Origin: a virus
IMG/VR virus record: IMGVR_UViG_3300025941_000667
Span: 1-64,000 of that record
DNA length: 64,000 bases
Strand: one strand, 5' to 3'
Each line of letters starts with the position of its first letter. Positions within the stretch are counted from its first letter, which is position 1. The notes beneath the pieces were generated by a model. The model did not search any database, was not told the DNA's origin, and saw only the letters and a list, made by a program, of their open reading frames with translations. The position numbers and the translations under genes are program-made. Below, piece after piece: positions 1 to 64,000 of this stretch.

Positions 1-243
1 GTCGTGGTCGAGGCTCCAGAAGGAGTAAGCATCAATGGGGAATCTGTTTCCAACACGAAGGTTTTTGAACAAGACTCAAAGGGGCGGCCCTACCCTGCTC
101 GGTTCCTCGGTGTAATCACAGTGCCGCGTGGGCTAGTTTTCTGTCTCGCGCCGTACAACGAACGCAGCTTCGATTCTCGGTACTGGGGCCTACTTTCTCA
201 GGACAGCATTGTGGAAACGATGAAGCCGGCCTGGACATGGTAA
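1..243 (+). CDS. traF: TraF-like conjugative pilin-maturation peptidase (S26 family), 5' end outside the window
   Basis: C-terminal motifs VSING..DSKGRP..P and SFDSRYWG; lies directly upstream of the relaxase. Confidence 0.85.
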   Translation, partial: VVVEAPEGVSINGESVSNTKVFEQDSKGRPYPARFLGVITVPRGLVFCLAPYNERSFDSRYWGLLSQDSIVETMKPAWTW

Positions 244-1301
244 TGCCGAACCCTCCAGCACAGCGAGATAACTGGACCTTTGGCGTTCAGCCTGACCGTG
301 CCCCTCGTATCCATGCTAGGCGGGGCGTACATCGACTGAGGTATGGACAGAAAGAAGCGCGGCGCAATGGTGGGGGAAAGTACAGGGCTACATTGGGGTA
401 CGGGAAACAATACTTCACGAATCCGCGCAACCAACGGGTTATTACACGGGCTCCTATCTCCATGAACGGGACAGGAAAATCTTGGTATAAGCATGGCGCG
501 TATCTCCAACGTGAGGGAGCACAGCAAGACGGACGTGGATTAGGCTTTGACGCGGAAGGAAATGCGGTACGCATTCCCACCACAGTAGCCCGGTGGCAAC
601 GCGAAGGTGACCGATGCCTCTTTCGGATTATGTTGAGTCCAGAGCATGGGGACCGGATAGACCTGCAAACGTTTACGCAGGCAACGATGCGCAGCGTTGA
701 GAAGGATCTCGGGAAGCCGCTGGAGTGGGTTGCCATTGACCATCACAACACCGCGCATGACCATGTTCATGTCTGCATGCGGGGCGTGGACCGCGAGGGG
801 CACGAGCTACGCATTGCGCAAGATTATCTCTATCGGGGCATTGCTGCCCGCGCCTCGGACCTGCTGACGCGAGAGTTAGGGTGGAGGCTAGAACCGGAGC
901 TAGAGCAGGCGCGAGAGCGAGCATTGGAACGTCTGCTCTTTGGCGAGCACGACCGATCAATCCTCATGAAGCTCGATGATCGACAGCAGGTACAGGAGCG
1001 CGATCTTACCGATATTGAACGGCGGCGATTGCTTATTTTAGAAGAGCGGCGTCTTGCTTGGAAACACGATGAAGTATGGGAAGTGGCCTATCAATGGAAA
1101 GGAAAGATGACCATGGCGGAAACGAACGATCGAGAACAACGGAAGCAAGAACGGGAGTTGGAGCAAGAACACGCGCGAGAGCAGGAACGTGAACGGTCTA
1201 AAGAGGAGTTGACGAAGAACACGCCAGAGCAACAACGAACACGGCTCGTGCGAACGATTGATGAAATGGAACGCGAGCAGAGCAGGGAGCGAGGTCGCTA
1301 A
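243..1301 (+). CDS. Relaxase, MOBP/VirD2-like (RlxS type), short form
   Basis: HGAYLQREG (candidate catalytic Tyr), FRIMLSPE, WVAIDHHNTAHDHVHVCMRG (HUH motif), charged tail ending EREQSRERGR; TAATG coupling to traF. Confidence 0.88.
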   Translation: MPNPPAQRDNWTFGVQPDRAPRIHARRGVHRLRYGQKEARRNGGGKYRATLGYGKQYFTNPRNQRVITRAPISMNGTGKSWYKHGAYLQREGAQQDGRGLGFDAEGNAVRIPTTVARWQREGDRCLFRIMLSPEHGDRIDLQTFTQATMRSVEKDLGKPLEWVAIDHHNTAHDHVHVCMRGVDREGHELRIAQDYLYRGIAARASDLLTRELGWRLEPELEQARERALERLLFGEHDRSILMKLDDRQQVQERDLTDIERRRLLILEERRLAWKHDEVWEVAYQWKGKMTMAETNDREQRKQERELEQEHAREQERERSKEELTKNTPEQQRTRLVRTIDEMEREQSRERGR

Positions 1302-3199
1302 TGCCCCGTCTTCCTTACCGACTTCCCCAACCAGGATTGAGCCGTGTCACCGGCTTGTACCCGCAGGTTATCGTGGGCGGGATCTTTTCCCTAGTGATCG
1401 CGTGCTGGATTGGGACACAAGTGGCCGCAGGGAAAACGGGGTACGCGCCAGTGCTAGGCCCCTCATGGTTCGGCCACATTTATCCGCCCTGGAGTCTCGT
1501 GTTGTGGTCTATTCGACCGTACCAAGACCCCATTGTCGCGGCGGCGTTATGGTCAGGGCTGAAAGCGTTCTTCGTCTGGCTCACGGTGGGTGCGCTTGTC
1601 GTGTTTGGCGCTGCATTTACCAAAGCGAAGCAGTACGAAGAGCAATCGGACATTAAAGGAAGTGGACACCTGGGAACGTTAGCACAGGCTCACGAGCACG
1701 GATTGATAGGACTCTTAGTACACAAAGGTATCCTGCTTGGAAACTTCGAGCACAAGGGCCAACTCTTCCCCCTCTGGGATACAGGCACCGCGCCGTTGCT
1801 CCTTGTGGGGCCGAACCGTTCGGGTAAAGGACTCTGTTTTGTGATTCCTAATCTCCTCATGAGTGTGGGCATGAGTAGTGTCGTATTTGATCCCAAGGGC
1901 GAGAACTGGGACAAGACAGCAGGCTATCTCAAATCACAAGGACATCTAGTGATGAAGGTAGACCCGACAAACGACGAGGCTACTCCCTGGAATGCGCTCT
2001 TGGAGATGCCGGAGTACCCGCATGATGTCGCGTTTGCGCAGAACTTAGCACTCGCGTTTCGGCCACCATTGAGTGAGCACCAAACAAAAGGCGACCCGCA
2101 CTGGGAACTCACAGCAGATGAATTCATTGTTGCAGTGATGCTCCATGTCTTCTACGCAGAACCAGAGAAGGGCATGGGGCGATGTTGGGAAGTGATGGTG
2201 AACCCAAATCGTGACATTGCGCAGCTCCTTGAGTATCTCAGTACCGCAGAGCACGATCCCACAAGTAAGCATGGATGGAAAGACACAACGGGTAAGCCGA
2301 CGAAAACACACCCCAACGTACAGCTGGCGGTTGGGGCTATGCAGAACAGCAGCTTAGGGCACCAAGCGTCAGTCGTCACGACAGCCCAAGCCTACTTTGG
2401 ATTGTTCCGTGATCCCATCATTAAACAGAACACGCGAGAAAGCGGGTTCCATGTTGGCGATCTTCTTGATGAGACTCTTCCTCCCATCACCATTTATTTG
2501 ACCACGCCAATCTTTGATCAAGAGCGGGTGCGACCTTTCCTGCGGCTATTCTTCTTTCAACTGTGGCGGGTTGTTAGTCAGAGGCAGGTAGACCGTAGTG
2601 TGGGATGGAGTCTGTCACGCAAAGGACCACGGCAACTCTTTCTGCCGATGGACGAGTATCCGGTGCTTGGTAGGATGGAGACCTTTGAGGCGATTCTTCC
2701 GAACCTCGCCTCACTCGGAGTAAAAGTCGCCTTGATTGTGCAGACGCCGGCGCAGATGCGAGCGATTCACGGACAGAACGGCAGTGAGGCTATCCTCGAC
2801 AACTGCACCATTAAGATCTTCTTCCGGCCAGAAGGAACCAAGACAGCAGCGGACATCTCGCGCCTGTGTGGGACCATGACGGTCTCCACTGAGACACTGA
2901 CCTACACCGGCCATCGGTGGAGTGTGTTCTTGCCGCATGTAATAGCGGGTATCAACCGAGAAAAGCGCGGCGTGCTCGAAGAGGATGAAGTATTGCGGCT
3001 TGAAGATTTGATGGCGCTTGTTATCCATAAGGGCGTGCCCTATTTAGCGCTCAAGATTCCATACACCGAAGACATCGTACTGAGTCAACGAGCAGCGATA
3101 CCAGCACCAACAGTAAGTGATTCTTTATTTAAGAGGAGCAAGACATGGGGAGCAACGGGAACGGGCGGCGGCAAGCTAGTCTGGAACCTCACGCCATAG
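1301..3199 (+). CDS. traG: Type IV coupling protein TraG/VirD4
   Basis: N-terminal TM segments, Walker A GPNRSGKG, VIPNLL, FDPKGEN, Walker B-like MDEYPVLG, ILDNC. Confidence 0.93.
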   Translation: MPRLPYRLPQPGLSRVTGLYPQVIVGGIFSLVIACWIGTQVAAGKTGYAPVLGPSWFGHIYPPWSLVLWSIRPYQDPIVAAALWSGLKAFFVWLTVGALVVFGAAFTKAKQYEEQSDIKGSGHLGTLAQAHEHGLIGLLVHKGILLGNFEHKGQLFPLWDTGTAPLLLVGPNRSGKGLCFVIPNLLMSVGMSSVVFDPKGENWDKTAGYLKSQGHLVMKVDPTNDEATPWNALLEMPEYPHDVAFAQNLALAFRPPLSEHQTKGDPHWELTADEFIVAVMLHVFYAEPEKGMGRCWEVMVNPNRDIAQLLEYLSTAEHDPTSKHGWKDTTGKPTKTHPNVQLAVGAMQNSSLGHQASVVTTAQAYFGLFRDPIIKQNTRESGFHVGDLLDETLPPITIYLTTPIFDQERVRPFLRLFFFQLWRVVSQRQVDRSVGWSLSRKGPRQLFLPMDEYPVLGRMETFEAILPNLASLGVKVALIVQTPAQMRAIHGQNGSEAILDNCTIKIFFRPEGTKTAADISRLCGTMTVSTETLTYTGHRWSVFLPHVIAGINREKRGVLEEDEVLRLEDLMALVIHKGVPYLALKIPYTEDIVLSQRAAIPAPTVSDSLFKRSKTWGATGTGGGKLVWNLTP

Positions 3200-3570
3200 G
3201 GTGGGGTGGACATAAGCGAGTTCAACACTGTGTGAGCTTTGATCCGGAACTTGAGAGATGGATTAGTCGAGAACAAGTCGCAGGCGGACTTTCCTTTAGT
3301 GAAGTTGTCAATCGAGAACTCAAGAAGCAACACGACCTCAGACAGCAGCTCTCCGGACTCACAAGCGTAGACAGCGAACAGCAGACGCCTGTGTATCAGG
3401 TGTTATTGGAGCAGTTCGGGCAGAAAGTGGGGCGCACGGTTGACGGGGCCATGAGAGATATCACGGTTGTGCAGGCAATGGTCGCCGCGTTCGCGGAGAT
3501 CGCGATGAGCCCGGAGCAATTTAGCCGATGGGAACGGACTGTCACGGAAGGGAGGAAGAAGCCATGCTGA
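3145..3570 (+). CDS. Putative ribbon-helix-helix (CopG-like) protein; start uncertain
   Basis: RVQHCVSFDPELERWI...SFSEVVNREL fits a strand-helix-helix pattern; sits between traG and trbB as in Tn4371-type clusters. Confidence 0.6.
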   Translation: MGSNGNGRRQASLEPHAIGWGGHKRVQHCVSFDPELERWISREQVAGGLSFSEVVNRELKKQHDLRQQLSGLTSVDSEQQTPVYQVLLEQFGQKVGRTVDGAMRDITVVQAMVAAFAEIAMSPEQFSRWERTVTEGRKKPC

Positions 3571-4532
3571 TGATGAACGAGCAGAAAGAGGATCTCAAGC
3601 GCACGCTCCGTGAGGATATCGGCACTGCCTTCAGTGCGCTATTGACTCACCCTGACGTAATCGACATTCACGCGAACCCCGATGGGCGCGTCTGGATTGA
3701 TACGCTGAAAGGGCGAAAGCCTACAGACGTGGCGCTCACTCCCGAACGGATAGAGCTAATCATCCGGCATGTGGCGTCGTATCACGGGCGGGTGTGTAAC
3801 GAAGACTTCCCATCACTCCGGGCAGTCTTCCCATTAGGGGGAGAGCGGTTTCAGGGTGGACGACCACCGATTGCTTCCCCACATTTCACGATTCGGAAAC
3901 ATCTACAGAAGGTAATTCCCGTATCCGAACTCGTACAGCAGGAGACACTTACGCAGGCGCAAGCGAATGTAATCTTCTCGGTACTCAAAGCCCGTCAGAA
4001 TGTTATCTTTGCGGGCATGACGCTCTCTGGCAAGACAGTTATGGTCGATTCAATTTTGCCTGAATACCTAACGCTCTTTGGCCCCTCAGTCCGGGTCGTC
4101 ACGATTGAAGACACACGGGAGCTGATTGGCGCGGTAGACAATATAGTGATGAAAGAAGCGTCGGCGCAATGGGGCGTGCAGGAGCTAGCGCGAGATACAT
4201 GGCGTGAGAGTCCTGACGTTGTGATCTTAGGTGAAGTACGGGGTGCGGAAGTCATTGAGTTGGTCAAGATTTTGTCGTCGGGACACGGCGGCAGTATGTG
4301 TACGGTACACGGCGGTAGCGTTCGCGAAGCCCTAGGCCGTATGGAAATGCTAGCGATGGAAGGGGGGCTGATGAATTATGCCCAGCGTATTGCCTCAGTG
4401 GTGCACCTCGTAGTGGTGATGGAGCGCGCAGCATCGGACAAGTGGAGAGTCAAAGAGATGGCGCGCGTGATGGGATGGAAGGATGGGGAGTATCTGATTG
4501 CGCCAACGGAAGGAGGAATGCCTATAAGCTAA
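3564..4532 (+). CDS. trbB: P-type conjugative transfer ATPase TrbB/VirB11
   Basis: NPDGRVWID, GERFQG, Walker A GMTLSGKT, TIEDTREL, PDVVILGEVRGAE, His box GHGGSMCTVHG. Confidence 0.93.
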   Translation: MLMMNEQKEDLKRTLREDIGTAFSALLTHPDVIDIHANPDGRVWIDTLKGRKPTDVALTPERIELIIRHVASYHGRVCNEDFPSLRAVFPLGGERFQGGRPPIASPHFTIRKHLQKVIPVSELVQQETLTQAQANVIFSVLKARQNVIFAGMTLSGKTVMVDSILPEYLTLFGPSVRVVTIEDTRELIGAVDNIVMKEASAQWGVQELARDTWRESPDVVILGEVRGAEVIELVKILSSGHGGSMCTVHGGSVREALGRMEMLAMEGGLMNYAQRIASVVHLVVVMERAASDKWRVKEMARVMGWKDGEYLIAPTEGGMPIS

Positions 4533-4592
4533 GTCGTTGAATATGCGGCAAGAAGCGTTCACGGAATAACCTTTGAGTGAAGGAATAACAAT

Positions 4593-4925
4593 ATGAAAAG
4601 CTGGCTACAATCAATTAAGTGGGAACATATTTCAATGATGCTAATGACCATGGGGATTGTTGGGTTAGCAACGGCAGCGCACGCGGCAGGCGGCGGCGGT
4701 GCAATCGGCGCGTGGGGACCGATGGGGACCATTGCGGAGAGTGCAAGCGGCACGCCTGCCTTCGCCTGTGGAAGCATGATGATGGTCGGCAGTGGTATCC
4801 GCATCTGCATGGGAGAAATTGGCACCGGCATGTACAGTGCGGCATGTGGTGTTGGCGGCACGTGGCTTGCCGCCAACGCAGGCCCCGCACTCACGCAGTT
4901 CGGTATCGCAGGCGCCCTCTCCTAA
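4593..4925 (+). CDS. trbC: Pilin TrbC/VirB2
   Basis: Signal peptide ending AAHA, two hydrophobic helices, C-terminal GALS; follows trbB. Confidence 0.75.
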   Translation: MKSWLQSIKWEHISMMLMTMGIVGLATAAHAAGGGGAIGAWGPMGTIAESASGTPAFACGSMMMVGSGIRICMGEIGTGMYSAACGVGGTWLAANAGPALTQFGIAGALS

Positions 4926-4937
4926 GGGAGTATCATC

Positions 4938-5228
4938 ATGGGAACACCCCGACAATATCCGATACACAAGTCACTCACCGACCCTATTCTACTTTGGGGT
5001 GGTGAATGGTTCCTCGTTGGTCCGTGGTGGACGATCATCGGTGGGGCATTATGGGTCACTGCAATAACCAAACCGAAACTTGCTGTGGTCGCGCTTATTG
5101 TCGGGCTCTTGGGTCAGAAGGGACTACAGAAGCTCGCGAAGAATGACCCCTTCTGGTCCAAGGTCTTTTGGAGAACAAGACGCTATCAATCCTACTATCC
5201 AGCACACACGAGACGAGGGGGCCGCTGA
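4938..5228 (+). CDS. trbD: TrbD/VirB3
   Basis: PIHKSLTDPILLWGGE, two TM segments, LAKNDP, RYQSYYPA. Confidence 0.88.
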   Translation: MGTPRQYPIHKSLTDPILLWGGEWFLVGPWWTIIGGALWVTAITKPKLAVVALIVGLLGQKGLQKLAKNDPFWSKVFWRTRRYQSYYPAHTRRGGR

Positions 5229-5416
5229 TGGAAAAAGAAAAGGAAGAAGTCTCTCTTGAGGAACTCGCTGCAAGGGTATTTCAACTTGAAGAAAAACAAA
5301 AACTCACAGGTGAATTTATCCAGCTTTTAACCCAACAGGTTATACGCGACAAAGGGATTACGGAACTTCCACCAAAACTCATACGGTGCATATTGCAAGC
5401 AGCAGGAACACTATGA
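5228..5416 (+). CDS. Small helical hypothetical protein (62 aa) between trbD and trbE
   Basis: TGATG overlap with trbD and ATGA overlap with trbE; MEKEKEEVSLEELAARVFQLEEKQK. Confidence 0.6.
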   Translation: MEKEKEEVSLEELAARVFQLEEKQKLTGEFIQLLTQQVIRDKGITELPPKLIRCILQAAGTL

Positions 5417-7908
5417 AAAAGCGGGACAAGGGATTCGAGGAACATCTAAACTACTGGCTACCGCTTTGTGACAATCCAACCGTTTTGGGATTCAAGGGTG
5501 GGGAGTTTTTCCGCGCCTGGGACATGTTTGGACCAGACTTACGATACGCCTCAGAAGAGGAGCGGGCGCGACTTTCTGCGATTCAAGGACAGGCATTCCG
5601 CCTCGTCTCTGACAACGGCTGGGTGCTCCAGTCGCATCGACTCTGTGATGAGCAAACCGGCTATTTACCGCGAACGGAGTTTCCTGACCCAACCTCCGCA
5701 TTGATCGACGAGGAGTCGCGGAGGCGATACACACAACAGGGGGCACACTACGAACATGCCTATGCACTCTGTCTCACCTGGAAACCACAGCATGAGTGGG
5801 CAGAGCGATACAGCCCGCTTTTTTACGAAGGCATGGACCGGGGGAAGGAAGGGAAGCAGGGAATGCTCAAAGAGTTCATTCGCGTCTCAGAAGAGATGAC
5901 GGCAATTTTAGGAACGGTCGTACAGCTCGACCCCATGGACCGAGATGGACTTTACACCTACCTGCGCACTTGTGTAACCGGACAAGGGTATCGAGTACGG
6001 GCGCCACAGGGCCAAGTCCCATGGAGTCACGCCATGATGGATCAAGAAGTATGGACCGGAGAGCAACCCAAGGTGGGGCCGTTGCATGTACGAACGGTGA
6101 CTATCGAAGGATTCCCAGCACAGAGCGAGCCGCAGATGTTGGAGTTTTACGCGGAGCTGGATTTTCCGTACCACGCCCATCACCGATTTATTTTTATGGA
6201 TAAAGTAACAGCAGACATGACACTCGACGCGAAGCGGAAGAAGCACGCGAATAAACGAGTGGGCGCAAAAGGATTCTTTGCGCGAGTAGCAACAGGAGAC
6301 TCGGGCCATAAACAGAACATTGCCGCGACCGTGCAGGCGGACGACGCACAGATGGCGCAAGCTGAGAATGAACTCGGAGAAGCAGCGTATGGTATCTACA
6401 CGGGAGGAATCACGCTGTTTCACGAAGACCAAGAAGAGGTCGAACGCAGGGCGGGCATGGTACAGCAGCTCTTGCACTTTCGACAGTTCCAGACACGGCT
6501 AGAGCGTATGAATGCTGTCGAAGCATGGCTCGGCGGATGTCCGGGACAAGTGGCCGAGAATATCCGACAGTTCCCCATCCATGCATTAAACCTGGCAGAC
6601 TTTCTGCCGGTGACATCCATTTGGACCGGGCAAAAGACGGTGACGAGCCCCTTCTTCCCTGAAGGTGCACCTGTCCTCATGATGGGTACAACTTACGGAA
6701 AAGCCCCATTCTATCTTTCTCCCTACTATAGCGACCTGGGGAATACGCTCATGGTCGGACCACCAGGTAGCGGCAAGACGACGAACCTCAACATGATGGC
6801 AGCTTCCTGGTTGCGGTATCCTCATTCTCGGGTGCGGGCCTTTGACGCCAAGTACGGGATGTACGCACTCTGCCGTGCGGTTGGCGGCACGCACCATGAC
6901 ATTGGCGGCGTGGATCGCGTAGGCGTCATGCCGTATGCGCGGGTGGAGAATGAGCGCGAACGTATCTGGGCGCATCGGTTCACGCTCGAATGTTTGCGGC
7001 TGCAACACTGCCCCGTGTCCGAGAAACAGAGCAATGAGATTTGGGATACGCTAACATTGATGGGGTCAAAGGCGGAAGGTCGAAGCATGACAGACTTCGT
7101 GCATACGCTACAGGACCAGCAACTCCGGCAGGGGATGCGCTACTATACGAAGCAGGGGGCTGGCGGTGATCTGTTTGACCAACAAACGGCTCCGCCGCTC
7201 AACAGTCGGTTCATCGTCTTTGAGCTGATGCATCTCTTTAGCCGTGGACAGGCAGACCTGCTGCCGGCAGTGCTGTACTTCTTTCACGAGGTCGAGCGAG
7301 AACTCAATGGTACACCAACGCTGATTCCCATGGATGAAGGATGGAAGCCGCTATTAGACTCAACACTTGGTGAGAAGGTGGAAGAGTGGGAGCGCACGTT
7401 CCGGGATAAGAATGCGGTGCTCGTGTTTGCCACACAATTCCTAGCAGACGTTGCACGCTCGCCTATTTACGCACACATGGTCGGCGCGTGTCCCACAAAG
7501 ATATTTGCGCCAGATCCAGTCGCAGAGACAGACATCAAAAAATACTACGAGGGCGTAGGACTGAACGACAAACAAATTGCTGCGGTCAGACATGGACTCC
7601 CCAAGAGTGACTATCTCATTACCTCGCCGCTAGGCACTGCCGAGTACACGATGAACTTGGGGCGGGCAGTACTTGCCTTCGTTGGCATGAGCGGTGTGGA
7701 GAACGTGCCGAAGATTCGCGCCATCGCAGACAAGTACGGACCAGTGTGGCCCTATCATCATTTGCTTGCGCAAGGCTGCTCGGAAGAAGCGGCGTGGTGG
7801 ATGGCGGACTACGAACGACGACAAGGAAAGGAAAAACCCTATGAAACGTGCTTTACGGTTCCTGCTACTGCTTACGGCAATGGCGTGCACCCTGTCCTTA
7901 CCCAATAA
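5413..7908 (+). CDS. trbE: Conjugative transfer ATPase TrbE/VirB4
   Basis: GPDL, NAVEAWLGGCPG, NLAD, Walker A GPPGSGKT, Walker B MDEGW, FATQ, CPTKIF. Confidence 0.93.
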   Translation: MKKRDKGFEEHLNYWLPLCDNPTVLGFKGGEFFRAWDMFGPDLRYASEEERARLSAIQGQAFRLVSDNGWVLQSHRLCDEQTGYLPRTEFPDPTSALIDEESRRRYTQQGAHYEHAYALCLTWKPQHEWAERYSPLFYEGMDRGKEGKQGMLKEFIRVSEEMTAILGTVVQLDPMDRDGLYTYLRTCVTGQGYRVRAPQGQVPWSHAMMDQEVWTGEQPKVGPLHVRTVTIEGFPAQSEPQMLEFYAELDFPYHAHHRFIFMDKVTADMTLDAKRKKHANKRVGAKGFFARVATGDSGHKQNIAATVQADDAQMAQAENELGEAAYGIYTGGITLFHEDQEEVERRAGMVQQLLHFRQFQTRLERMNAVEAWLGGCPGQVAENIRQFPIHALNLADFLPVTSIWTGQKTVTSPFFPEGAPVLMMGTTYGKAPFYLSPYYSDLGNTLMVGPPGSGKTTNLNMMAASWLRYPHSRVRAFDAKYGMYALCRAVGGTHHDIGGVDRVGVMPYARVENERERIWAHRFTLECLRLQHCPVSEKQSNEIWDTLTLMGSKAEGRSMTDFVHTLQDQQLRQGMRYYTKQGAGGDLFDQQTAPPLNSRFIVFELMHLFSRGQADLLPAVLYFFHEVERELNGTPTLIPMDEGWKPLLDSTLGEKVEEWERTFRDKNAVLVFATQFLADVARSPIYAHMVGACPTKIFAPDPVAETDIKKYYEGVGLNDKQIAAVRHGLPKSDYLITSPLGTAEYTMNLGRAVLAFVGMSGVENVPKIRAIADKYGPVWPYHHLLAQGCSEEAAWWMADYERRQGKEKPYETCFTVPATAYGNGVHPVLTQ

Positions 7909-8656
7909 GGCGCAAGCCCAGTGGGAGGTCTTTGACCACGCCAACTTTCTCAAGAATACGATCACGTCGCTGCAGATGATCCAGCAAGTCAAACAGATGA
8001 TTCTACAGGTCAAGAATAGCAACCATGAAGTAGAGATGATGTTACTGAACCTACTTCAAGGGGGACCACAACGACTCTATCAACTGGATGAATACTATGC
8101 ACTTCTGCAAGCCGAAGAAGGAAAGTTTGCAGCGCGGCCAGGGTCAGCACGCACGCTTGATTACTACCATGGAGACTTGCAACCGATGGCAACCGATATG
8201 TATCCAGGCTTCCGCAATAGCGACCACTATTGGGCGCGGGCGTCCATTAACTCAGATACGGCGCTCAACACCATTTCCGCTACGCTTGGTCGACTGCATG
8301 TCAACGCTGGGCCTGAAGCCGAGTTTCGCCATCATGGGACACGGGACGGGATTGCGAATCAATCAGCGGCAGCAGAAGGAAACCTACAAGCACTGCAAGC
8401 CAACACCGCAGCAACCCTCTTCGCCGCGGATGCTGTGCATCGAGTAGAGAAAGGGACCGCAGAGATTGCCAATCTCCAAGCAGTCAATAATGCGTACTTT
8501 CTACAGAAAGAAGCCTGGGGGGAAGCGACACTGAGCTACAATCTCCATCTTGCTGGTGGGGATCGGGACGACTACGTGCCGCTCTATAATCGAGGTGCGG
8601 GCGGTGTCACCTATATTGGTAACTACCAAGGCGTGCCTGTAGATGGGGGCTACTAA
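7841..8656 (+). CDS. trbJ: TrbJ/VirB5-like minor pilin
   Basis: Signal peptide ending AQAQ, WEVFDHANFLKN, AEGNLQALQA; lies between trbE and trbL. Confidence 0.8.
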   Translation: MKRALRFLLLLTAMACTLSLPNKAQAQWEVFDHANFLKNTITSLQMIQQVKQMILQVKNSNHEVEMMLLNLLQGGPQRLYQLDEYYALLQAEEGKFAARPGSARTLDYYHGDLQPMATDMYPGFRNSDHYWARASINSDTALNTISATLGRLHVNAGPEAEFRHHGTRDGIANQSAAAEGNLQALQANTAATLFAADAVHRVEKGTAEIANLQAVNNAYFLQKEAWGEATLSYNLHLAGGDRDDYVPLYNRGAGGVTYIGNYQGVPVDGGY

Positions 8657-9726
8657 TGGACGTCTTAATGCCGACGGTAGACGCTCTCTCTCCGATTCAC
8701 CTACACTTCATGGCCGCAGCCCAGCAATGGTTCCCCACACTGTGGGCTGCAGCAAATTGGGTCTTTAATACACTCCTCATTGCCGAGGTCGTAACGTTTA
8801 TTATTGCCCGTAGTGCGTCAACGGCGTTGTTCTGGAATCTGCTCATTGACCGGGTATTCCGCATTCTCATGTTTAAGTTGATCCTGATAAACGCAGGCTG
8901 GCTTATCCCTGCTGCGATTAACGGGTTCATTGAAATGGGCAGCAGAGCGGGCGGCGTAGAAGCACTACAGCCACAAGCTGTCTTCGTTCAAGGGTTAGCT
9001 CTGATGGTGAAGATGTGTTACAAAATGGGGTCCTGGGACATGCTAGCGCACCCAGTTTCCGTTCTCACCGGCGTATTCTGCGCAATCGGGGTAGCCCTGG
9101 CCTTCTTCGCGATGGCCTTCACGCTCACACTGGCAATGGTTGAGATGTACATTGTCACCGGCGCAGGCGTGTTCCTATTGGGTTTTGGCGGCTGGAACGG
9201 GACAGCAGGCATCACGCATCGGTATCTGAGCTATGTGGTGGGCGTAGGCGTCAAGCTCTTCATGACGTATCTCTTAATTGGGGCAGGGGACGTGCTTGTG
9301 CAGCTCTGGGCAAGGATGGTCAATGATGTCGATATTCTCAATTTCGGCACTCCGTTCGCTATTCTCTTCGGGACCATGGCTTATGGATTATCCGTCTGGA
9401 GAATCCCCTCGCTGACATCAAGTCTACTGACCGGAGCTGTGGGCAGTGGCCTCATGGAGTCGATTCAGACCACCGTAGAAGTCTCACGGCTTGCAGTCTC
9501 TGCCGTCAGCGGCCCCGCAGCTGTGGCGAGCGCGGCGCACGCACTGGGCGGTATCGGCTATCAAACTGCACGGTTAAGCGGAGGAGGAATCAGCGGGGGA
9601 TGGCAAGGGCTGAAAGCCATGGGGAAAGCAGGGGGGCAACAGATGATGTCTTTCGGGGCGCCGCGAGTCAGTCAAGGTATGAGTAACTTGAGTAAACAAC
9701 ACCAAGAATTGAAAGCGAGACCCTAA
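8656..9726 (+). CDS. trbL: TrbL/VirB6 inner-membrane channel protein
   Basis: Polytopic membrane protein with EMYIV..AGVFLLGFGG..T...RYLSYVVGVGVKLF and a Gly/Ala-rich tail. Confidence 0.88.
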   Translation: MDVLMPTVDALSPIHLHFMAAAQQWFPTLWAAANWVFNTLLIAEVVTFIIARSASTALFWNLLIDRVFRILMFKLILINAGWLIPAAINGFIEMGSRAGGVEALQPQAVFVQGLALMVKMCYKMGSWDMLAHPVSVLTGVFCAIGVALAFFAMAFTLTLAMVEMYIVTGAGVFLLGFGGWNGTAGITHRYLSYVVGVGVKLFMTYLLIGAGDVLVQLWARMVNDVDILNFGTPFAILFGTMAYGLSVWRIPSLTSSLLTGAVGSGLMESIQTTVEVSRLAVSAVSGPAAVASAAHALGGIGYQTARLSGGGISGGWQGLKAMGKAGGQQMMSFGAPRVSQGMSNLSKQHQELKARP

Positions 9727-9950
9727 TGCTCACAAAAACAGGATCTTCATTATTGCAACAGCACGGGAGGAAAGCGCCAACCTCCTCGGGCCGATCAACA
9801 CAAAAACCAAAAAAGCTCGAACAGAAATCCGGTATCCCCTACGGCTGGAAGCCGTATAGTATCGTCACCGCACGGGACGAGATGCTCTTTGAAGCAGACC
9901 CCATACGATTCATTAACGATCCCCGATTTGCGGGAAGAAAAAGGGGATAA
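9726..9950 (+). CDS. Small basic hypothetical protein, last gene of the trb operon
   Basis: TAATG coupling to trbL; 74 aa. Confidence 0.45.
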   Translation: MLTKTGSSLLQQHGRKAPTSSGRSTQKPKKLEQKSGIPYGWKPYSIVTARDEMLFEADPIRFINDPRFAGRKRG

Positions 9951-10031
9951 GGAAACCGTTGCCCTTCTGCTCGCCTCGCGCCACACGTGGCACTGAGCGA
10001 GCGGGCGAGATGCAACGATAATTCCGGTTTT

Positions 10032-10077
10032 GTTCCCCTGCCTGGTTTTTGTGAAGGCAGGGGAACTGTTCTTTTTT
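10032..10077 (+). terminator. Intrinsic terminator ending the tra/trb operon
   Basis: Perfect 12-bp stem GTTCCCCTGCCT/AGGCAGGGGAAC with an 11-nt loop, followed by TGTTCTTTTTT. Confidence 0.75.
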
Positions 10078-10093
10078 ATGAGGAGGACTGCGT

Positions 10094-10471
10094 ATGCAGC
10101 AGGTTGTGGTAACGGTAGAAGCATTGCGATGTCATCAGTGTCGAAGGTTAATTTCTCCGCATGAGGACTTCTATCAACATCAAGCACTCAACTCGGTGAC
10201 CGTTGGATATCACGACAGGGCACATACCTACATTAGGGCGGACATCTGTAGTGAGTGCCATACGCTGTTGGTACGCATGGAGAAAGAAGATCAACAACGG
10301 GCATGGTGGAGAAGGCTGTGGATAGGAACTCTGCTTATCAACTTGATCGTCATGGCATTTCTTCCTGTGGGACTCTTCCCCTGGTACGGCGCTTTGATCG
10401 TTCGTGCTGGGTGGAAATGGAGGATGGAGCATCAACAACAGGCAGTAACGGAGGAAAGGAGAGCCGCATAA
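10094..10471 (+). CDS. Hypothetical membrane protein with CxxC...CxxC Zn-ribbon
   Basis: AGGAGG SD; CHQC and CSEC; C-terminal hydrophobic segments. Confidence 0.7.
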   Translation: MQQVVVTVEALRCHQCRRLISPHEDFYQHQALNSVTVGYHDRAHTYIRADICSECHTLLVRMEKEDQQRAWWRRLWIGTLLINLIVMAFLPVGLFPWYGALIVRAGWKWRMEHQQQAVTEERRAA

Positions 10472-10683
10472 TGATACCTCCCTTATTACCACCATTTTTT
10501 TTCATTGACCGCACCGGACTCCACCGTATCGGAGGAGGAGGAGGAGGTCTCACGGGGAAGGAGACACTTCTTTGCATTGCTGTGTCACTTGCTATTGCAT
10601 TCGTGTTTTTCTGGGCAACTGGAATGTGGGATATATTTTGCGGAGTTCCTGGCTGTAACCCATTTACCGATGTGTGGGAGTGA
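10471..10683 (+). CDS. Small single-TM hypothetical protein (70 aa)
   Basis: TAATG coupling; poly-Gly run, then LLCIAVSLAIAFVFFWA. Confidence 0.55.
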   Translation: MIPPLLPPFFFIDRTGLHRIGGGGGGLTGKETLLCIAVSLAIAFVFFWATGMWDIFCGVPGCNPFTDVWE

Positions 10684-10723
10684 ATACCATGCGCGGCGCG
10701 AAGAAAACTATAGGGAGTTTTTC

Positions 10724-11742: not shown

Positions 11743-11751
11743 TCGGATTCG

Positions 11752-41084: not shown

Positions 41085-41085
41085 A

Positions 41086-46644: not shown

Positions 46645-46647
46645 GAA

Positions 46648-53958: not shown

Positions 53959-54906
53959 TTAAGTTAAATTGTACAAACTAAAGAAGGCCCACGGCGCCAA
54001 AAACTCAAAATTGCCAATCAGCAAGAATTGCGCGGCGTAGCCATCGGTGCCGGGGATACGGTCCCACCCGGTCCAGTTCCAGGCCCCATCCTGCATGATG
54101 CAAAATTGCATATATTCAGTGTTGTAGCCGTTCATCTGCCCTGCAGGGCACTTTGCGTCGTCTACAAGGTTACATCCGAGATTACTAATGACTCGGTAGC
54201 CAAGTTCCGCAATCTCATTATTGCCGCTGTTCTTGTCAAAAATTTGTTGCGTGCTGATACGATTGGCCGCGGTTTCCCAGATCGTAGGAGTAGTAATCGC
54301 GAGATCGGGGGAATCGTTGCCGCGCCGGGCTCTCGTCTGGCCGTGCGTCATCGCCGCAAAATTAAAGGAACCGCCGGTCACATCTACAAAGGATTGCCAC
54401 CCATCAACAGAGGCACGCGGGATCGTGGCATACGTGGGATAAAACGTGCCGTCATCAATCGCGACAGCGGAGCCGTCCATATTAACGCCAGTGCCATCGC
54501 TAAAAATCTGCTCGCCCATAATATCGACGATTTTCATCTTGGCGGCTTGCTTCAGCGCTTCACTCAGCGTGAAACTGGAGGCGGGACCACGAGCACGTAG
54601 AGCATCAATCCGGGTAACGACCACTTCGGAGTAGGCTTGTTTCCATGTGACCGTTGCGGGGCGAAAGAGTTGTTTCTCCGAATTCGCAAAACGACCCAAG
54701 CCCGAGTACATGCCGCCGTTAGCCTTATCCACCATCACCGCCCAGGTAAGGTCAAAGTTCGGGTCGCACTCCATCAGCTTGTTATGAGAATCGAGGTACG
54801 AAAACAACGCAGACGAGGTAAAGGCAACATCGACCAAATATGGTTGGATCACACGACCGACCGCAGACCCCACGTTATCTAACCCGTTGGTAATGGTGAC
54901 AGGCAT
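53959..54906 (-). CDS. Major capsid protein (HK97 fold predicted)
   Basis: 315 aa after the scaffold; WKQAYS, IFSDGTG, PDLAITT, D.KCPAG.M...NT.Y. Confidence 0.8.
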   Translation of the reverse strand: MPVTITNGLDNVGSAVGRVIQPYLVDVAFTSSALFSYLDSHNKLMECDPNFDLTWAVMVDKANGGMYSGLGRFANSEKQLFRPATVTWKQAYSEVVVTRIDALRARGPASSFTLSEALKQAAKMKIVDIMGEQIFSDGTGVNMDGSAVAIDDGTFYPTYATIPRASVDGWQSFVDVTGGSFNFAAMTHGQTRARRGNDSPDLAITTPTIWETAANRISTQQIFDKNSGNNEIAELGYRVISNLGCNLVDDAKCPAGQMNGYNTEYMQFCIMQDGAWNWTGWDRIPGTDGYAAQFLLIGNFEFLAPWAFFSLYNLT

Positions 54907-55969: not shown

Positions 55970-56057
55970 ACGATATCTGAACTTTCGCCTTTTGTTCGCC
56001 CTAGGTGGTGTGACTCGGCTCGACGAGCGGCACCTGGAGGCGGAACAGGTCAGGCTG

Positions 56058-56723: not shown

Positions 56724-56818
56724 AAAGGTCTCCTTATACGATATTCGGGGCGAAGATAAAGCGAAAGTAAAATATACAGGCACGCTAGTACAATACAACC
56801 AAATAGCAATACGGACGG

Positions 56819-57137: not shown

Positions 57138-59135
57138 TCAGAGTGTCCCGCCGCTTTCGAGGCCCGGACCACCCATCAGTCCGGGAGGAATCCTTTGGAG
57201 AGCCGGAGGTAACGGTTGCGCGGAGTGAATAGTTCCCATTGACGGGGGGCCTGCCACCGGAGGATTGACGGGCGCACCAACAGGGATACCCCCGGCAGGC
57301 GGTCCCCCGTTCTGTTGCTGAGCTTTTTGCATTTCCGCTTGCTGCTGTTGCTGCATCATCGCCAGCTGGACGCGCGCTTGTTGATCGGCTTGCATTTGGG
57401 CAGCTTTCTCAAATTCCTCTTCTGCATTGGGCACTTGCGCCACTTCCATCACCGTTATTGGGTGCATCCAGCCTTTATCTGCGAACCGTTCGTACATGGA
57501 AATCTTGGGCAGTTGCGCAACGGCTAAGGCGCTGAAGGGTTTAATCCGGAACGTAAAGTCATCGAACAGATGCTGGAGCATCCGAGTCTGCTCTTCTTCA
57601 GACCCAGCCATCGCTAGCTCACGAACCAGTTCCCCCCGCTGCCACAGCACCCGCTGTATTTCTTTCTCGTTCGAGAGCAAGAGCACCCGGTCGTCGCTGA
57701 AATACTGGAGAACCCGGCTAATCATGAGCTGACCAAGCCGGTTCAGCATGTCTTCCGCGACACGGGCTTGCAGGCGAATCGTGTACTGCGAGGCTAAGAG
57801 CAGCGAGTCGAGGGCAACACCGGAAGTAACACCTTCTGGCCGTTGGCCCTGCGTGACGGGCGTAACACCTGTAATTTGTTCGAGGAGCTTTTGCAGTAGT
57901 TCAATCGTCGAGAAGACGACGGTGCTCATTTGCGCCGGATTCACCTGTTCAAAGCGCATGTTCTTCGGAACTACCCACGCCCACCCAGGTCTGTCTCTCC
58001 ACTTCCGAAACTTATCCAGTTCAGGGGGTTCGAGAGCATCCTGTTCCATAATCCACGGTGGGTCATTCGCAAGTTTTGCATTGTGAACAACACCACTAAT
58101 CAACACATTGAGCGCAACTTGCATCGTTTCAACGGTGTCAATCTCGGAATCGCCATACGGATGCCCCATCTGGAGGCCCCAATCGAAGACTTCGAAAGGA
58201 AATCCGCCATCCCAGTTGACGTTGGGACCATCGTAGAGAATGACATCGCGCGACCAGACAATCACCCGCTTCCGAGGAAACAAGAAGTTTGGTTGAGAAC
58301 TATTCGGCATCGTCGGCTCAATGGGATGCACCGACGGATCACGAAAATAGCAGCGGAACTCTTCCGCGTAGGGGATGGCGGAATTGCGAAAATGCCGATG
58401 ATGCCCACGGCGGCCAGGGCGCACAAACGGGCGGGCGCCGATCGAGCCTAGATCGTCATCCTCCTCATCGCCCGGCAGTTCATACTGGGAGAGTCCCACG
58501 TCAGGGCGCACCCGATAGCCCGCCTCTCCATAGAGTTGACGGAAATCTGAGAGCGGGCGCACCTTGCGAATGATCCCATAGAGCGCATCGGTCTGGAGAT
58601 TCTCAGGATGCAGCAAGCCGCGATCTAAGAGCACGTCTTTTTGCTTCATGACGTCGAAGCGGACATTGCGCACGCGATGGTCCCACATACAGGTGACGGG
58701 AGCACTACCGTCGAGGCTTCCCATCGCCACCATATTTTTGAAAAGCCTCTGCATATTGTTCTCTTCCCACAAGGCAAGAGACACATCCTTCAACATGCTC
58801 GCAGTGGCCGAAAATTGATTTGAGCGGCTCACGACGTCGAGCTGAGGAACGGAGTCTGTGAGCATCGCAATTTTGCGTTCAAGATTCGAGCGGAAGAGAT
58901 TGACCACGACTCGCGCCCGATAATTGGCTTCGCCGCGTGACAAGAAGTGATTCGAAGACAAGAAATCAAAAGCCCTCTGCGTCCGTTCTGCTAACCCGAG
59001 TTCGCCCCGCCACGCGCGGGACTCATCAACAAGTCGGTCACAAAACTTGATGACCTTCCGATGGTCAGTTGTTACCTGAATCGGATCGACCTGGACCGGT
59101 GTGAGTTCGTCGAGAACGGATTCGAGAGATTCCAT
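57138..59135 (-). CDS. Portal protein (podovirus type)
   Basis: 665 aa; VVVNLFR, FPF...D....PYG, ITGV..V.QG..P.GVTSG.A; Q/P-rich tail. Confidence 0.88.
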   Translation of the reverse strand: MESLESVLDELTPVQVDPIQVTTDHRKVIKFCDRLVDESRAWRGELGLAERTQRAFDFLSSNHFLSRGEANYRARVVVNLFRSNLERKIAMLTDSVPQLDVVSRSNQFSATASMLKDVSLALWEENNMQRLFKNMVAMGSLDGSAPVTCMWDHRVRNVRFDVMKQKDVLLDRGLLHPENLQTDALYGIIRKVRPLSDFRQLYGEAGYRVRPDVGLSQYELPGDEEDDDLGSIGARPFVRPGRRGHHRHFRNSAIPYAEEFRCYFRDPSVHPIEPTMPNSSQPNFLFPRKRVIVWSRDVILYDGPNVNWDGGFPFEVFDWGLQMGHPYGDSEIDTVETMQVALNVLISGVVHNAKLANDPPWIMEQDALEPPELDKFRKWRDRPGWAWVVPKNMRFEQVNPAQMSTVVFSTIELLQKLLEQITGVTPVTQGQRPEGVTSGVALDSLLLASQYTIRLQARVAEDMLNRLGQLMISRVLQYFSDDRVLLLSNEKEIQRVLWQRGELVRELAMAGSEEEQTRMLQHLFDDFTFRIKPFSALAVAQLPKISMYERFADKGWMHPITVMEVAQVPNAEEEFEKAAQMQADQQARVQLAMMQQQQQAEMQKAQQQNGGPPAGGIPVGAPVNPPVAGPPSMGTIHSAQPLPPALQRIPPGLMGGPGLESGGTL

Positions 59136-59143: not shown

Positions 59144-59278
59144 TTATGAAGCGAAGAAAAAGCGAAAGTAGAAGGCAAAAAAGGCATTGGGTGAGCCGCC
59201 ATAGAGCAAGAAACCAATTATAAAAGACAGAGCAAGGATGAGGACAAGCAAGGAAAGATTATTGGAATACTGCGGCAT
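59144..59278 (-). CDS. 44-aa membrane peptide (not in the ORF track)
   Basis: MPQYSNNLSLLVLILALSFIIGFLLYGGSPNAFFAFYFRFFFAS. Confidence 0.45.
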   Translation of the reverse strand: MPQYSNNLSLLVLILALSFIIGFLLYGGSPNAFFAFYFRFFFAS

Positions 59279-61618: not shown

Positions 61619-62650
61619 TCACTCTCTCCAGCTCTCCGTATCCGATTCCTCAAAACGATTCTGCCGCACACGTTCTAACTCTTTGCGCAGGAGCGCGGCG
61701 TCAACATTCACTGGCTGCACTTCGCGCGGCTGACGATTCTTCCCATATGGAGTAAACGGCAAACACAACGCCATATACTGAATACAGTCTTGCGTATGCG
61801 AGAATGCGCCCTTTTCCGGTTCTTCGCCGGCCCCATGCTTCGAGAACGCATAACCGCCCTGCATCCCATCAATAACGAGCGTACAGGTCGGATCAATCAA
61901 AAAGCCTGCGGTTCTTGGCCCTTCCCTTGAGGGAGGCGACCAATCCAGCCAATCGTTCACAATGTTGGTCCGGTTCAGAATCTTATTACTCGGCGCCAGC
62001 TGCAAGCGAATGCCATTTTGCCTAAAGATCTGTTCAGCTGTGCCCTGGCGCTGTACGGTTTCGTTGGCGATCGTCGGATCACCGACGTCGCGCCACGTCA
62101 CCCCAGGAAACTCGACATTACGAAACTCCTTGACGAGCTGAATGAATTGCCCAAGTCCGGAGACATTGTACTCTTGGTCTTGGTACGGACTCCTCGAGGA
62201 AGAGTTCGTCAAAAAGGCGCCGGCCATTTGCCGGGCTGCATAGATGTACAAATGTCGGTCCCAACACTGGCCGATCACTGCGGCATGGATGCCAATGTCC
62301 CAGCCACACCACATTTCAAGCCCTTTGTAATAGGTCAACGAAATTTTCCCTGGCGGATTATTCTGCGGCATGCGGGCAACATGCCAGGTGCTATCGAAGC
62401 TGGAATACACAGGACGACCGCCGAAGCTCTCAAAGTTGAGCTCCATTTCCTGCTCCCACGCCTGATCCGTGAAATCCTTCATGGTCTCGTGCATCCACGT
62501 CAGACTTCGATGCTCAGAATGGGCAGTGTAATGGAGAGCAAGCACCTCGACGCCATTGAATGGATTGACCCAGTTGGCGACACCCTGCATGGGAAGGTCA
62601 GCGTAATGGGGCACCTTGAGCTTGCCCATGTTGGCGATACGGTTAGGCAT
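61619..62650 (-). CDS. Terminase large subunit, C-terminal part (RNase H-like nuclease)
   Basis: WEQEMELNF, GRPVY..F, CGWDIG, VGDP, IDPTC..VIDGM.GGY, SHTQDCIQY; own AGGGAGG SD. Confidence 0.8.
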   Translation of the reverse strand: MPNRIANMGKLKVPHYADLPMQGVANWVNPFNGVEVLALHYTAHSEHRSLTWMHETMKDFTDQAWEQEMELNFESFGGRPVYSSFDSTWHVARMPQNNPPGKISLTYYKGLEMWCGWDIGIHAAVIGQCWDRHLYIYAARQMAGAFLTNSSSRSPYQDQEYNVSGLGQFIQLVKEFRNVEFPGVTWRDVGDPTIANETVQRQGTAEQIFRQNGIRLQLAPSNKILNRTNIVNDWLDWSPPSREGPRTAGFLIDPTCTLVIDGMQGGYAFSKHGAGEEPEKGAFSHTQDCIQYMALCLPFTPYGKNRQPREVQPVNVDAALLRKELERVRQNRFEESDTESWRE

Positions 62651-63390
62651 CAAAACGCCTCCCTCGTATGACTCACAGTCTTGTCGTTCACCACGTCACT
62701 CCAGAACGTTCCATTGATTGCGCTGCAAATGACCCTGACCTTGCCGCCACCCATCGTCGTGGGCAACATCGCCGTGTACGACCTTTCTTGCCATTCCCAA
62801 AAGCCGAACTCTTCGACATGCAGTAATGTCGCCCCTTCCTGCCGGAGATCGTCCGGCTTCTGGTTCAACGCGATAATCTTGCTGTTGGTCTCCTCGAACT
62901 CCAACACCGTCGCATTGCCTTCCTTCCCATGCCTCACGTAGATATGCGGCTTGGGCATCTCGCGCGGGAGGTGCTGATAGATGAAGAGACAACGCTGGAC
63001 GAGTTTGTCCGAGTCTGTTTGATCCTTGCTCGCGATGTAGACTTGAGCCGAGGGCGTCCACATCGCAGTATGGAGATCGAGGGCGCAGGCTGTCCAGGTC
63101 ACAATCATTCGTCGACTCTTCGGAATAGCCAGCACACGCCGAGGCGACAGATACTTATGGACAAAAATGACGATGAAATCTTCGCGAGGAATACGTCGAA
63201 TCGGGTTCTTGACGATCATCGGCCCATTGGGGTTCATGGGGTCTTGTACGTTTGTTGGATCTTCGGTCCAACAGGCTTGTGTGACAAACGAGACAGGATT
63301 GCGCAGCCAGCCAGTAATCACCGCGGACCACCAAGCTTGTGTCTGCGAGGAGTCCAGCGGCATTTGTCGGGGATAGGCAACAGCAACCAT
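62650..63390 (-). CDS. Terminase large subunit, N-terminal part (ATPase)
   Basis: Walker A-type IPKSRRMIVTW, Walker B LLHVEEFGF, motif III ICSA. Confidence 0.82.
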   Translation of the reverse strand: MVAVAYPRQMPLDSSQTQAWWSAVITGWLRNPVSFVTQACWTEDPTNVQDPMNPNGPMIVKNPIRRIPREDFIVIFVHKYLSPRRVLAIPKSRRMIVTWTACALDLHTAMWTPSAQVYIASKDQTDSDKLVQRCLFIYQHLPREMPKPHIYVRHGKEGNATVLEFEETNSKIIALNQKPDDLRQEGATLLHVEEFGFWEWQERSYTAMLPTTMGGGKVRVICSAINGTFWSDVVNDKTVSHTREAF

Positions 63391-63431
63391 AAGGCAAACA
63401 AAAGGCGAAAATGAAAAACAAAAAAAAAAGA

Positions 63432-63671
63432 CTACGGCTTCTTATCAGCAGGCCAGAGCAAGCGCGCAACATACAGAGAGGTGCGCCCTTCGTCATACTT
63501 GGCAACGACCTTTTCAGCATGGAGCTGTTCTGTCACGTCTTCGAGCCCGTGTTCATCATCATACTGTTGCAGCATGGATTGCACCTGTTGATACGCCTCC
63601 CGATGCGCGCCGTTGATGTGGCGCCGCAGGTTAATGGGGTGCACATCTTGTTTGCAGAATCGACACAGCAT
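63432..63671 (-). CDS. Small C2H2 zinc-finger protein
   Basis: CRFC....LRRHINGAH. Confidence 0.55.
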   Translation of the reverse strand: MLCRFCKQDVHPINLRRHINGAHREAYQQVQSMLQQYDDEHGLEDVTEQLHAEKVVAKYDEGRTSLYVARLLWPADKKP

Positions 63672-63672
63672 A

Positions 63673-63942
63673 CTACGACTTCCTATGCCTATCCCGCACC
63701 CGGTTCACCTTCTTCTCTGGGGCCGGAGCTTTCTGCGGCACGGGAATAGGCTTCATGGGGGCAGGCTCGCTAAACCGAATCGGAATCTCGCGAATGCCTT
63801 TGCGGGCGTTTTCCTCAATAACCTCAAGTGTCGCAAGCGCAGGCGCAAGGCCAAGCAAGGTAATCACCTGCTGAAGCCTGTGCTCCAATGCGGCTACTCG
63901 GTTGTAGGTCTCTTCGCTTTCAAACCAGCTACGTTCGGGCAT
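63673..63942 (-). CDS. Hypothetical protein (89 aa)
   Basis: Same orientation as the operon; coiled-coil N-terminus, basic tail. Confidence 0.45.
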   Translation of the reverse strand: MPERSWFESEETYNRVAALEHRLQQVITLLGLAPALATLEVIEENARKGIREIPIRFSEPAPMKPIPVPQKAPAPEKKVNRVRDRHRKS

Positions 63943-64000
63943 TTTATTTCGCCTTTCTCAATATCTCTCGCGCCGTCGACTCGCGCATTCCCTGATGATA

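Follow-up and report, generated by a model that had tools for sequence, protein, structure and literature searches.

Can one replicon spread both as virus particles and by conjugation? The question is raised by a 64,000-nucleotide stretch of IMG/VR virus record IMGVR_UViG_3300025941_000667, positions 1-64,000 of a single 78,217-bp contig (hereafter the window), in which genes of a Trb-type type IV secretion system (T4SS) on the + strand run head-on into late genes of a tailed phage on the - strand. A preliminary description, made from the window alone, had proposed a conjugative phage. We show here that the two modules are contiguous, that both look intact and that the T4SS is kept by purifying selection. 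With a probability of about 45%, the contig is some 60% of one dual-transfer element, a SU10/P22-like soil phage or phage-plasmid owning a Trb-type conjugation system of mating-pair formation type T (MPF-T). It would belong to a lineage of soil and rhizosphere short-tailed phages with their own MOB-P-like relaxase, coupling protein and Trb T4SS, each a single replicon spreading by virions and by conjugation; for this lineage too, we put the odds slightly below even. Nearly as likely, a temperate phage has integrated beside or inside an integrative and conjugative element (ICE) or a conjugative plasmid. The T4SS would then be the neighbour's, virions would lack the trb genes and the phage could ride along by conjugation.

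The conjugation module occupies positions 1-9726 of the + strand in the order traF-relaxase-traG-x-trbBCDEJL. It was compared with the two closest T4SS clusters found, which lie on contigs C25 and C37 of another genome. The contig end cuts a TraF-like S26 signal/pilin peptidase, of which the C-terminal 80 amino acids (aa) remain (1-243; Pfam PF10502, E 6.6e-9; 43% identity to C25 TraF). It is followed by a MobA/VirD2-type relaxase of 354 aa (237-1301; PF03432, E 2.3e-10, 41 bits against a cut-off of 24.6; 48% identity to the C25 homologue). Its His-rich motif HHNTAHDHVHV is intact; the catalytic tyrosine was not assigned, and no relative was found in the PDB by sequence. The TraG/VirD4 type IV coupling protein of 632 aa (1301-3199; PF02534, E 2.6e-60, plus PF12696 and PF10412) carries the Walker A motif GPNRSGKG and the Walker B region MDEYP. 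Next comes a 141-aa accessory protein kept in this T4SS clade (3145-3570; no Pfam match; syntenic in C25 and C37 at 29-32% identity). The TrbB/VirB11 ATPase (3528-4532; PF00437, E 5.6e-26; Walker A SGKT) is 51% identical to that of C25. A hydrophobic 110-aa protein with a signal-peptide-like start is the TrbC/VirB2-like pilin candidate (4593-4925; no Pfam match; 39% identity to a C25 open reading frame, ORF). TrbD/VirB3 (4938-5228) matched PF05101 below the cut-off (E 5.9e-4) and is 42% identical to the syntenic C25 and C37 ORFs. The TrbE/VirB4 ATPase (5386-7908; PF19044, PF03135) has the Walker A motif GPPGSGKT. A TrbJ/VirB5-like protein with a signal-peptide-like N-terminus (7694-8656, likely start 7841; weak Pfam match; 35% identity to a C25 ORF) and TrbL/VirB6 (8656-9726; PF04610, E 2.3e-18) complete the set. 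The TrbC-like and TrbJ-like proteins were assigned by position and by tblastn to the relatives, where they fall, together with TrbD, within 35-42% identity. Thus VirB4, coupling protein and relaxase, by which an MPF-T system is recognized, are accompanied by VirB11, VirB6, VirB3, pilin and VirB5. The preliminary description had listed these genes along with three accessory genes on the + strand, and all T4SS genes that it named were recovered by Pfam, position or tblastn. The envelope-spanning core (TrbF/G/I) is missing, and no TrbI (PF03743) was found across the 78-kb contig.

We asked whether these genes look alive. The Walker motifs of TraG, TrbB and TrbE are intact. Among the natural variants listed within the T4SS genes, 36 of 39 are synonymous and three are nonsynonymous. 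The T4SS is therefore under purifying selection in the wild population, and the intact motifs together with the mostly synonymous variants make its genes look functional. Base composition was compared as well. The T4SS has a GC content of 54.3%, close to the 53-56% of the phage parts, while its closest homologues have 62.5%. We read this as a drift of the T4SS toward phage GC and counted it in favour of one element. Tetranucleotide usage was dropped, as it cannot tell the hypotheses apart: correlations of the T4SS range over r = 0.39-0.73 against the phage parts, 0.39-0.51 against unrelated loci and 0.67-0.70 against C25/C37.

The phage module lies on the - strand. Here, the preliminary description had seen a late region of roughly 53 kb. 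Its phage nature was borne out by major capsid protein, portal, adaptor and large terminase, but its extent was not: the late arm spans about 56 kb, from 11077 to about 66.9 kb, beyond the window. The large terminase is encoded by two ORFs overlapping by 4 nt, an ATPase part (62650-63390, 246 aa; phrog_2) and a nuclease part (61619-62653, 344 aa). The same split occurs in a relative of about 95% identity (L020, 3138-4912), and in two relatives of 32-46% identity (L021 and L022) the halves lie about 6 kb apart (404-1129 and 7309-8319). The split terminase therefore looks genuine in this phage lineage. The portal is of SU10/P22 type (57138-59135; PF23899, E 5.7e-18, PF16510; phrog_156). The major capsid protein (53959-54906; phrog_9953, E 2.8e-25) has 23-41% identity to the product of the gene that follows the portal gene in related phage contigs. 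Terminase, portal and capsid protein, the hallmarks of a tailed phage, are thus all encoded, and their order is the same in related phage contigs. A SU10-type head-to-tail adaptor (32723-33385; PF24175, E 1e-11; phrog_399) and fibre/spike genes are also present. No tail tube, sheath or tape-measure family was matched in the scans, a weak absence given that many late genes have no family. That neither module is decayed, as had been proposed, agrees with the intact motifs, the mainly synonymous T4SS variants and the complete-looking virion module.

The two arms meet at 11077-11080, where the tetranucleotide CTAA holds the stop codons of both last ORFs, TAA on the + strand (11078-11080) and TAG on the - strand (11077-11079); the overlap had been described correctly. 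Upstream, a 74-aa ORF closes the T4SS operon (9726-9950, +; exact protein on five contigs, cluster member on a 4660-bp contig). It is followed on the same strand by an inverted repeat that resembles an intrinsic terminator, with a perfect 12-bp stem and a T-run (10032-10078). Then come a 125-aa membrane protein, rich in Cys (CxxC...CxxC) and preceded by a strong ribosome-binding site (10094-10471; cluster members on 6155- and 4660-bp contigs) and a Cys-rich ORF of 118/136 aa (10670-11080; weak phrog_31190 match, homologue on a 3550-bp contig). On the other side, the last late gene encodes a 221-aa coiled-coil protein with a C-terminal membrane anchor (11077-11742, -; no family match). Population contigs carry a 345-nt variant at 10389-10735.

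Could the assembler have fused two genomes, one of a conjugative element and one of a phage? In favour of this, the assembly graph branches at 9.94-9.96 kb, and none of the listed contigs singly spans 9901-10351. However, a contig of data set X1, made with a different assembler and possibly from the source sample, covers 10351-12153 without mismatch and crosses 11077-11080. In other assemblies, cluster members of TrbL and the 74-aa and 125-aa ORFs were found on 4660-bp contigs, TrbL and the 125-aa ORF on 6155-bp contigs, and the 118/136-aa ORF and the 221-aa gene on 3550-bp contigs; identical bp sizes were taken as the sign that such members share a contig. Four metagenomes with four study codes (rhizosphere 2017, soil 2025, aquatic 2017) contain both sides and the junction region. 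The join was judged real because the X1 contig crosses it, the contigs of other assemblies appear to tile from TrbL to the 221-aa gene and the four metagenomes hold both sides. The GC content is also equal on both sides. An assembly artefact is therefore unlikely, and we give a chimera only a very small chance. The depth of the exactly matching X1 contigs was 11-13x on the T4SS side and 8-10x on the phage side, from which no conclusion was drawn since contig depth cannot rank regions. Portions lacking cover in the data sets X2 and X4 were left out of account.

With a real join, the question becomes whether the modules form one element. Several features favour this. The early genes are oriented like the T4SS, both converging on the late arm; genes are tightly packed, and the stop codons of the last two overlap. 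The preliminary description had seen no integrase, transposase, attachment (att)-like repeat or host gene at the junction, and none was recognized when the whole contig was screened. The tyrosine integrase family PF00589 had no match in the 78,217 bp (serine recombinases were not searched), and no tRNA was found there. Neither a transposase nor a recognizable host gene was seen in the 78 kb, in which not every small ORF was scanned. The region 1-11 kb has no long repeat in common with the remainder of the contig, hence no att-like repeat was seen; the exact words of at least 14 nt that they share are few and short. In a phage-ICE tandem or an integrated prophage, an integrase, att sites at the joints and host flanks are expected; the contig shows none of them, its outer ends being unsequenced. 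IMG/VR classes the record as 'linear', not as provirus. No prophage form of the virion module was found either: portal relatives were absent from 185,579 species genomes, from 56 genomes of the order to which the T4SS relative belongs and from 72,556 plasmids. Moreover, the adjacencies of TrbL with the small ORFs and of a small ORF with the 221-aa gene recur in diverged strains, a point against two elements.

A closed precedent also speaks for one element. The uncultured viral genome G066 (IMGVR_UViG_3300045141_000181; L065-L070) has 72,812 bp, a 127-bp terminal repeat, a CheckV completeness of 100% and 54.8% GC. Its large terminase matches 648 phage records by BLAST. Portal and major capsid protein are SU10/P22-like, as judged from language-model leads only. 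It encodes TrbB, TrbE, TrbL, a TrbG-like protein, TrbI, TraF and a coupling-protein-like gene, together with a tyrosine recombinase and a 1334-aa protein; no PF03432 relaxase was found in it. Thus G066 resembles our contig in joining a SU10/P22-like virion module to a Trb-type T4SS at similar GC. In contrast to the contig, its T4SS does not run head-on into the late arm, a tyrosine recombinase is present and the PF03432 relaxase is absent. From its gene content, G066 is a candidate conjugative phage.

Other observations weigh against a single element and, in part, directly for a phage lodged in or beside a conjugative element. First, the contig is unclosed. CheckV estimates a completeness of 60%, no direct or inverted terminal repeat was found in the 78,217 bp, and joining the end to the start does not continue the open traF frame. 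In contigs from other sequencing runs, the left end is prolonged by at least 255 nt with the TraF frame kept, and this extension has no counterpart at the right end. The record is therefore a fragment, broken inside traF, and the circularity that could have established a closed extrachromosomal replicon was not found. Its ends could lie in host DNA. Second, no replication, partition or lysogeny gene was recognized in the contig, for which Pfam was run on ten larger ORFs and PHROGs on 36 ORFs of the early region. A phage-plasmid carries replication and partition genes beside its virion genes; here, the only ParB-like domain sits within a giant protein, and about 40% of the genome is missing. 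Third, no regulatory motif common to both modules was found. Four copies of an 18-nt box, TTTCGC-N6-TTYGCC, were found where 0.3 would be expected, all of them preceding head and packaging genes (55983-56000 on +; 56749-56766, 59150-59167 and 63393-63410 on -). The box is thus confined to 55.9-63.4 kb and absent from the T4SS. Possibly it marks late promoters or regulator sites; a sigma-like protein encoded at 66373-66918 might act there.

The junction itself adds to these points. Population contigs diverge on both sides of 9939-9955, with loose ends and a joint at 9939, 9947 and 9955. In data set X3, the T4SS side is joined to other sequence at 9939, and in X1, other sequence is joined to the phage side at 9955. 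Together with the T4SS having its own terminator, this divergence marks a module boundary, and prophage borders typically lie where a late operon ends. The alternative junctions leave a gap of 15 nt and have no common core, which argues against a simple att site, though weakly since they come from different samples.

The relatives of the two modules were weighed as well. For the virion module, relatives were found only in uncultured contigs. Amino acid identity is about 95% to L020, which covers terminase to portal only, 30-40% to marine and groundwater contigs and 21-27% to IMG/VR phages. A portal relative of 31% identity lies on a 77,970-bp groundwater contig (ERZ1292642), and near-identical strains are on contigs of 35-42 kb. 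Among 50,697 phage records, neither the region 1-20 kb (megablast) nor the portal (tblastn) had a match, and a single-protein scan of IMG/VR with the major capsid protein gave none. Five distant relatives of the virion module, 44-63 kb long and in four cases at least 90% complete, were searched and lack a coupling protein. The association with the T4SS is therefore not ancestral to the phage lineage. A search for genomes linking this virion clade to a T4SS had been suggested with the proposal. Besides the five relatives without coupling protein, it turned up only the remotely related G066, which combines both kinds of module on a closed molecule.

The T4SS, in turn, has its closest kin outside phages. 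The closest TrbE homologues form a small divergent group of 53-54% identity, whereas ordinary TrbE proteins reach 30-35%, among them those of Burkholderia, Comamonas and Agrobacterium plasmids (about 34%). TrbE matched 2121 plasmids, 1496 of which are predicted to be conjugative. A single-protein scan of IMG/VR with TrbE found no match, and scans with alignments of TraG, TrbB and the terminase nuclease found no close relatives. The clusters on C25 (16.9-29.3 kb) and C37 (0-10.4 kb) belong to one metagenome-assembled genome of 7.1 Mb (G006) and share the gene order at 29-53% amino acid identity. Their contexts are not phage-like but contain an integrase, transposases, AAA/TPR regulators, WD40 proteins and a HATPase protein. 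C37 was considered as a phage and dismissed: a 967-aa protein encoded on it is HATPase-like, and two others, of 683 and 487 aa, matched nothing in phages or the PDB. A single match to a window protein was found on C37, to the 1448-aa fibre/spike protein (31% over 316 aa). Another candidate relative, L059, with a match of coupling-protein type, is a provirus without VirB4 and was not useful. As a side observation, G006 thus holds two diverged copies of the unusual cluster trbG-like-trbI-traF-relaxase-traG-x-trbBCDEJL, both in non-phage DNA. Its label 'Enterobacteriaceae' looks doubtful for a genome of 7.1 Mb and about 58% GC with WD40 and TPR regulators.

Phages beside conjugative elements are, in addition, common in the literature. 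Phage-ICE tandems were reported in 612 cases from seven phyla (Huang et al., Sci Adv 2026, PMC13651849), and prophages occur on conjugative megaplasmids (PMC12934698). Like these, our contig has a complete prophage-like module directly beside a conjugation module, so that co-transfer is possible. In a tandem, however, the two elements each have an integrase and att sites lie at the joints, whereas the contig shows neither and its modules end in overlapping stop codons. This difference could vanish since the contig is incomplete. Finally, the precedent G066 is remote from the contig, with 25% identity in TrbE and an hhalign E of 0.0085 for the portal. What it demonstrates is the existence of hybrids of this kind; it does not make this contig one of them. 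Of the single replicon with dual spread that had been proposed, contiguity in more than one assembly and the intactness of both modules stood; that it is a single replicon did not gain the same support, given the unclosed contig, the lack of a replication or partition gene and the non-phage relatives of the T4SS.

The missing TrbG and TrbI are explained by the relatives. In C25 and C37, TrbI and a TrbG-like protein are encoded directly before traF, and trbL is followed by nothing but small ORFs. Likewise, TrbG-like and TrbI genes adjoin traF on its upstream side in G066. By analogy, trbL is the natural end of the cluster in this clade, and the TrbG-like and TrbI genes are expected just off the left end of the contig, which breaks inside traF. 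In a single dual-transfer element, the early arm on the + strand, starting at about 67.2 kb, would leave the right end, cross the unsequenced stretch and re-enter at traF. This stretch should hold replication genes and trbG/trbI. The + arm would then continue via trbL and two small genes up to the late arm on the - strand.

Close to the junction lies a giant gene. It encodes a polyvalent protein with SLT transglycosylase, DdrB-like ParB, SF2/ResIII helicase and methyltransferase domains (11752-24239, -; Pfam). In the window it reads as a 3396-aa ORF and an overlapping 840-aa ORF. Contigs of X1 and X3 have one additional base after 14282, which fuses the two ORFs into 4162 codons, and a 4162-aa member of the giant-protein cluster is found on a 35,328-bp contig of another assembly. 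The window thus probably carries a one-base error or variant that splits a single giant polyvalent gene, the 840-aa ORF being its C-terminal part. Polyvalent proteins are delivered along with the DNA. Iyer and colleagues reportedly described them in 2017 for phages and conjugative elements, with P1 DarB as an example. The protein resembles those such as DarB in combining SLT, DdrB-like ParB, SF2 helicase and methyltransferase domains in one giant chain. It differs in being very large (3396-4162 aa) and in its place between a T4SS and a virion module; delivery by one or the other is conceivable. In a dual-transfer element, it may accompany the DNA by either route.

If the contig is one element, its two modes of spread can be pictured as follows. 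In a carrier cell, the relaxase would nick a putative origin of transfer (oriT). TraG would feed the DNA into the Trb channel, so that the entire element passes to a neighbouring cell in contact with the carrier. After induction, capsids would be built by the sigma-like factor and the late operon, and the same DNA would be packaged into them along with the giant polyvalent protein. Both routes, by virion and by conjugation, are predicted from the genes. A single replicon might also use its T4SS otherwise, for protein delivery to neighbours or to the host envelope, for pili or for mobilizing other DNA. The virus-borne Trb set has no tested role, the giant ParB-helicase-methylase protein adjoins the T4SS and G066 has a T4SS with no PF03432 relaxase, all of which would suit such uses. 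However, relaxase and coupling protein, the parts for DNA transfer, are present and intact here, and their order is kept as in the closest clusters. We therefore regard these other uses as improbable.

Compared with the MPF-T systems of IncP and Ti plasmids and of Tn4371-family ICEs, the contig shares TraF, the MobA/VirD2-type relaxase, TraG/VirD4 and TrbB-C-D-E-J-L, whose internal order is the usual one. In contrast to them, trbG and trbI precede traF in its two closest relatives and do not follow trbL; its cluster also belongs to a small divergent clade and abuts a phage late operon. Phage-plasmids of the P1, N15 and SSU5 types (PMC7969092, PMC12282955) and the Escherichia coli 'conjugative phage-plasmid' p1002-1, which arose by fusion of two plasmids (preprint 10.1101/2025.03.14.643293), likewise hold virion and plasmid-type genes on one molecule. 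The latter shows that a conjugative plasmid can fuse with a phage-plasmid. Unlike these, the contig has no recognized plasmid replication or partition gene, and its virion module is unrelated to known families, with no match in the phage and plasmid records searched.

A review from 2025 on plasmid mobility states that neither phage-plasmids nor prophages of a conjugative kind are known (PMC12282955), a gap that a verified case would fill. Phages and conjugative elements count as distinct vehicles of gene flow that differ in host ranges, costs and defences. An element with both machines could overcome receptor barriers through mating, followed by explosive spread in the form of particles. If true, this would change the modelling of host range, the classification of plasmids versus viruses (geNomad and IMG/VR labels) and the view of gene flow in soil. 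On the ordinary reading, the contig is a phage-ICE or a plasmid-borne prophage of uncultured soil bacteria, with a Trb clade of unusual gene order.

The remaining late genes were annotated from ORFs and family scans, all on the - strand. Next to the adaptor, at 33388-34281, lies a protein with a tail-fibre N-terminal (anchor) domain (phrog_2712 and phrog_1980, E ~1e-8; homologues in L003 and L022). An N6/N4 DNA methyltransferase is encoded at 37257-37916 (PF01555, E 2.4e-19; phrog_67, E 3.3e-45). The receptor-binding/depolymerase block (40083-50994) comprises a 367-aa polysaccharide lyase (PF14099), an 1852-aa IPT/TIG-Ig-LamG protein (PF01833, PF09099, PF13385) and the 1448-aa fibre/spike protein (phrog_6002, E 2e-32). 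On the other side of the adaptor lies a 1020-aa protein that is weakly internal-virion-protein-like (28615-31677; phrog_511, E 6.6e-5). Four tightly packed genes of 552, 269, 384 and 167 aa (24248-28377) have no Pfam or PHROG match. Beyond the window, the family scan found genes for a small-terminase (TerS)-like and the sigma-like protein at 65.5-66.9 kb. From 67.2 kb, small genes on the + strand run off the right end of the contig, among them a SWIM protein and a C5 methylase.

Some compositional and repeat features were noted in passing. The - strand genes at 11752-27874 have more C than G on the coding strand (+ strand GC skew of +0.05), whereas in all other blocks of the contig G exceeds C. 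The giant gene and its neighbours are thus compositional outliers. A reading of GC skew as replichores was rejected, as the skew tracks the coding strand except at 11.7-27.9 kb. Between the early genes, an intergenic element of about 70 nt occurs three times at 67779-69231 of the contig (L001 7779-9231), with the form CGCT.GCCAGAGTCCAGCC...GGGCTATGTTTAGTGG followed by a ribosome-binding site. Additional repeats of a hairpin plus ribosome-binding site are found at L001 8888-8950 and 9952-10015.

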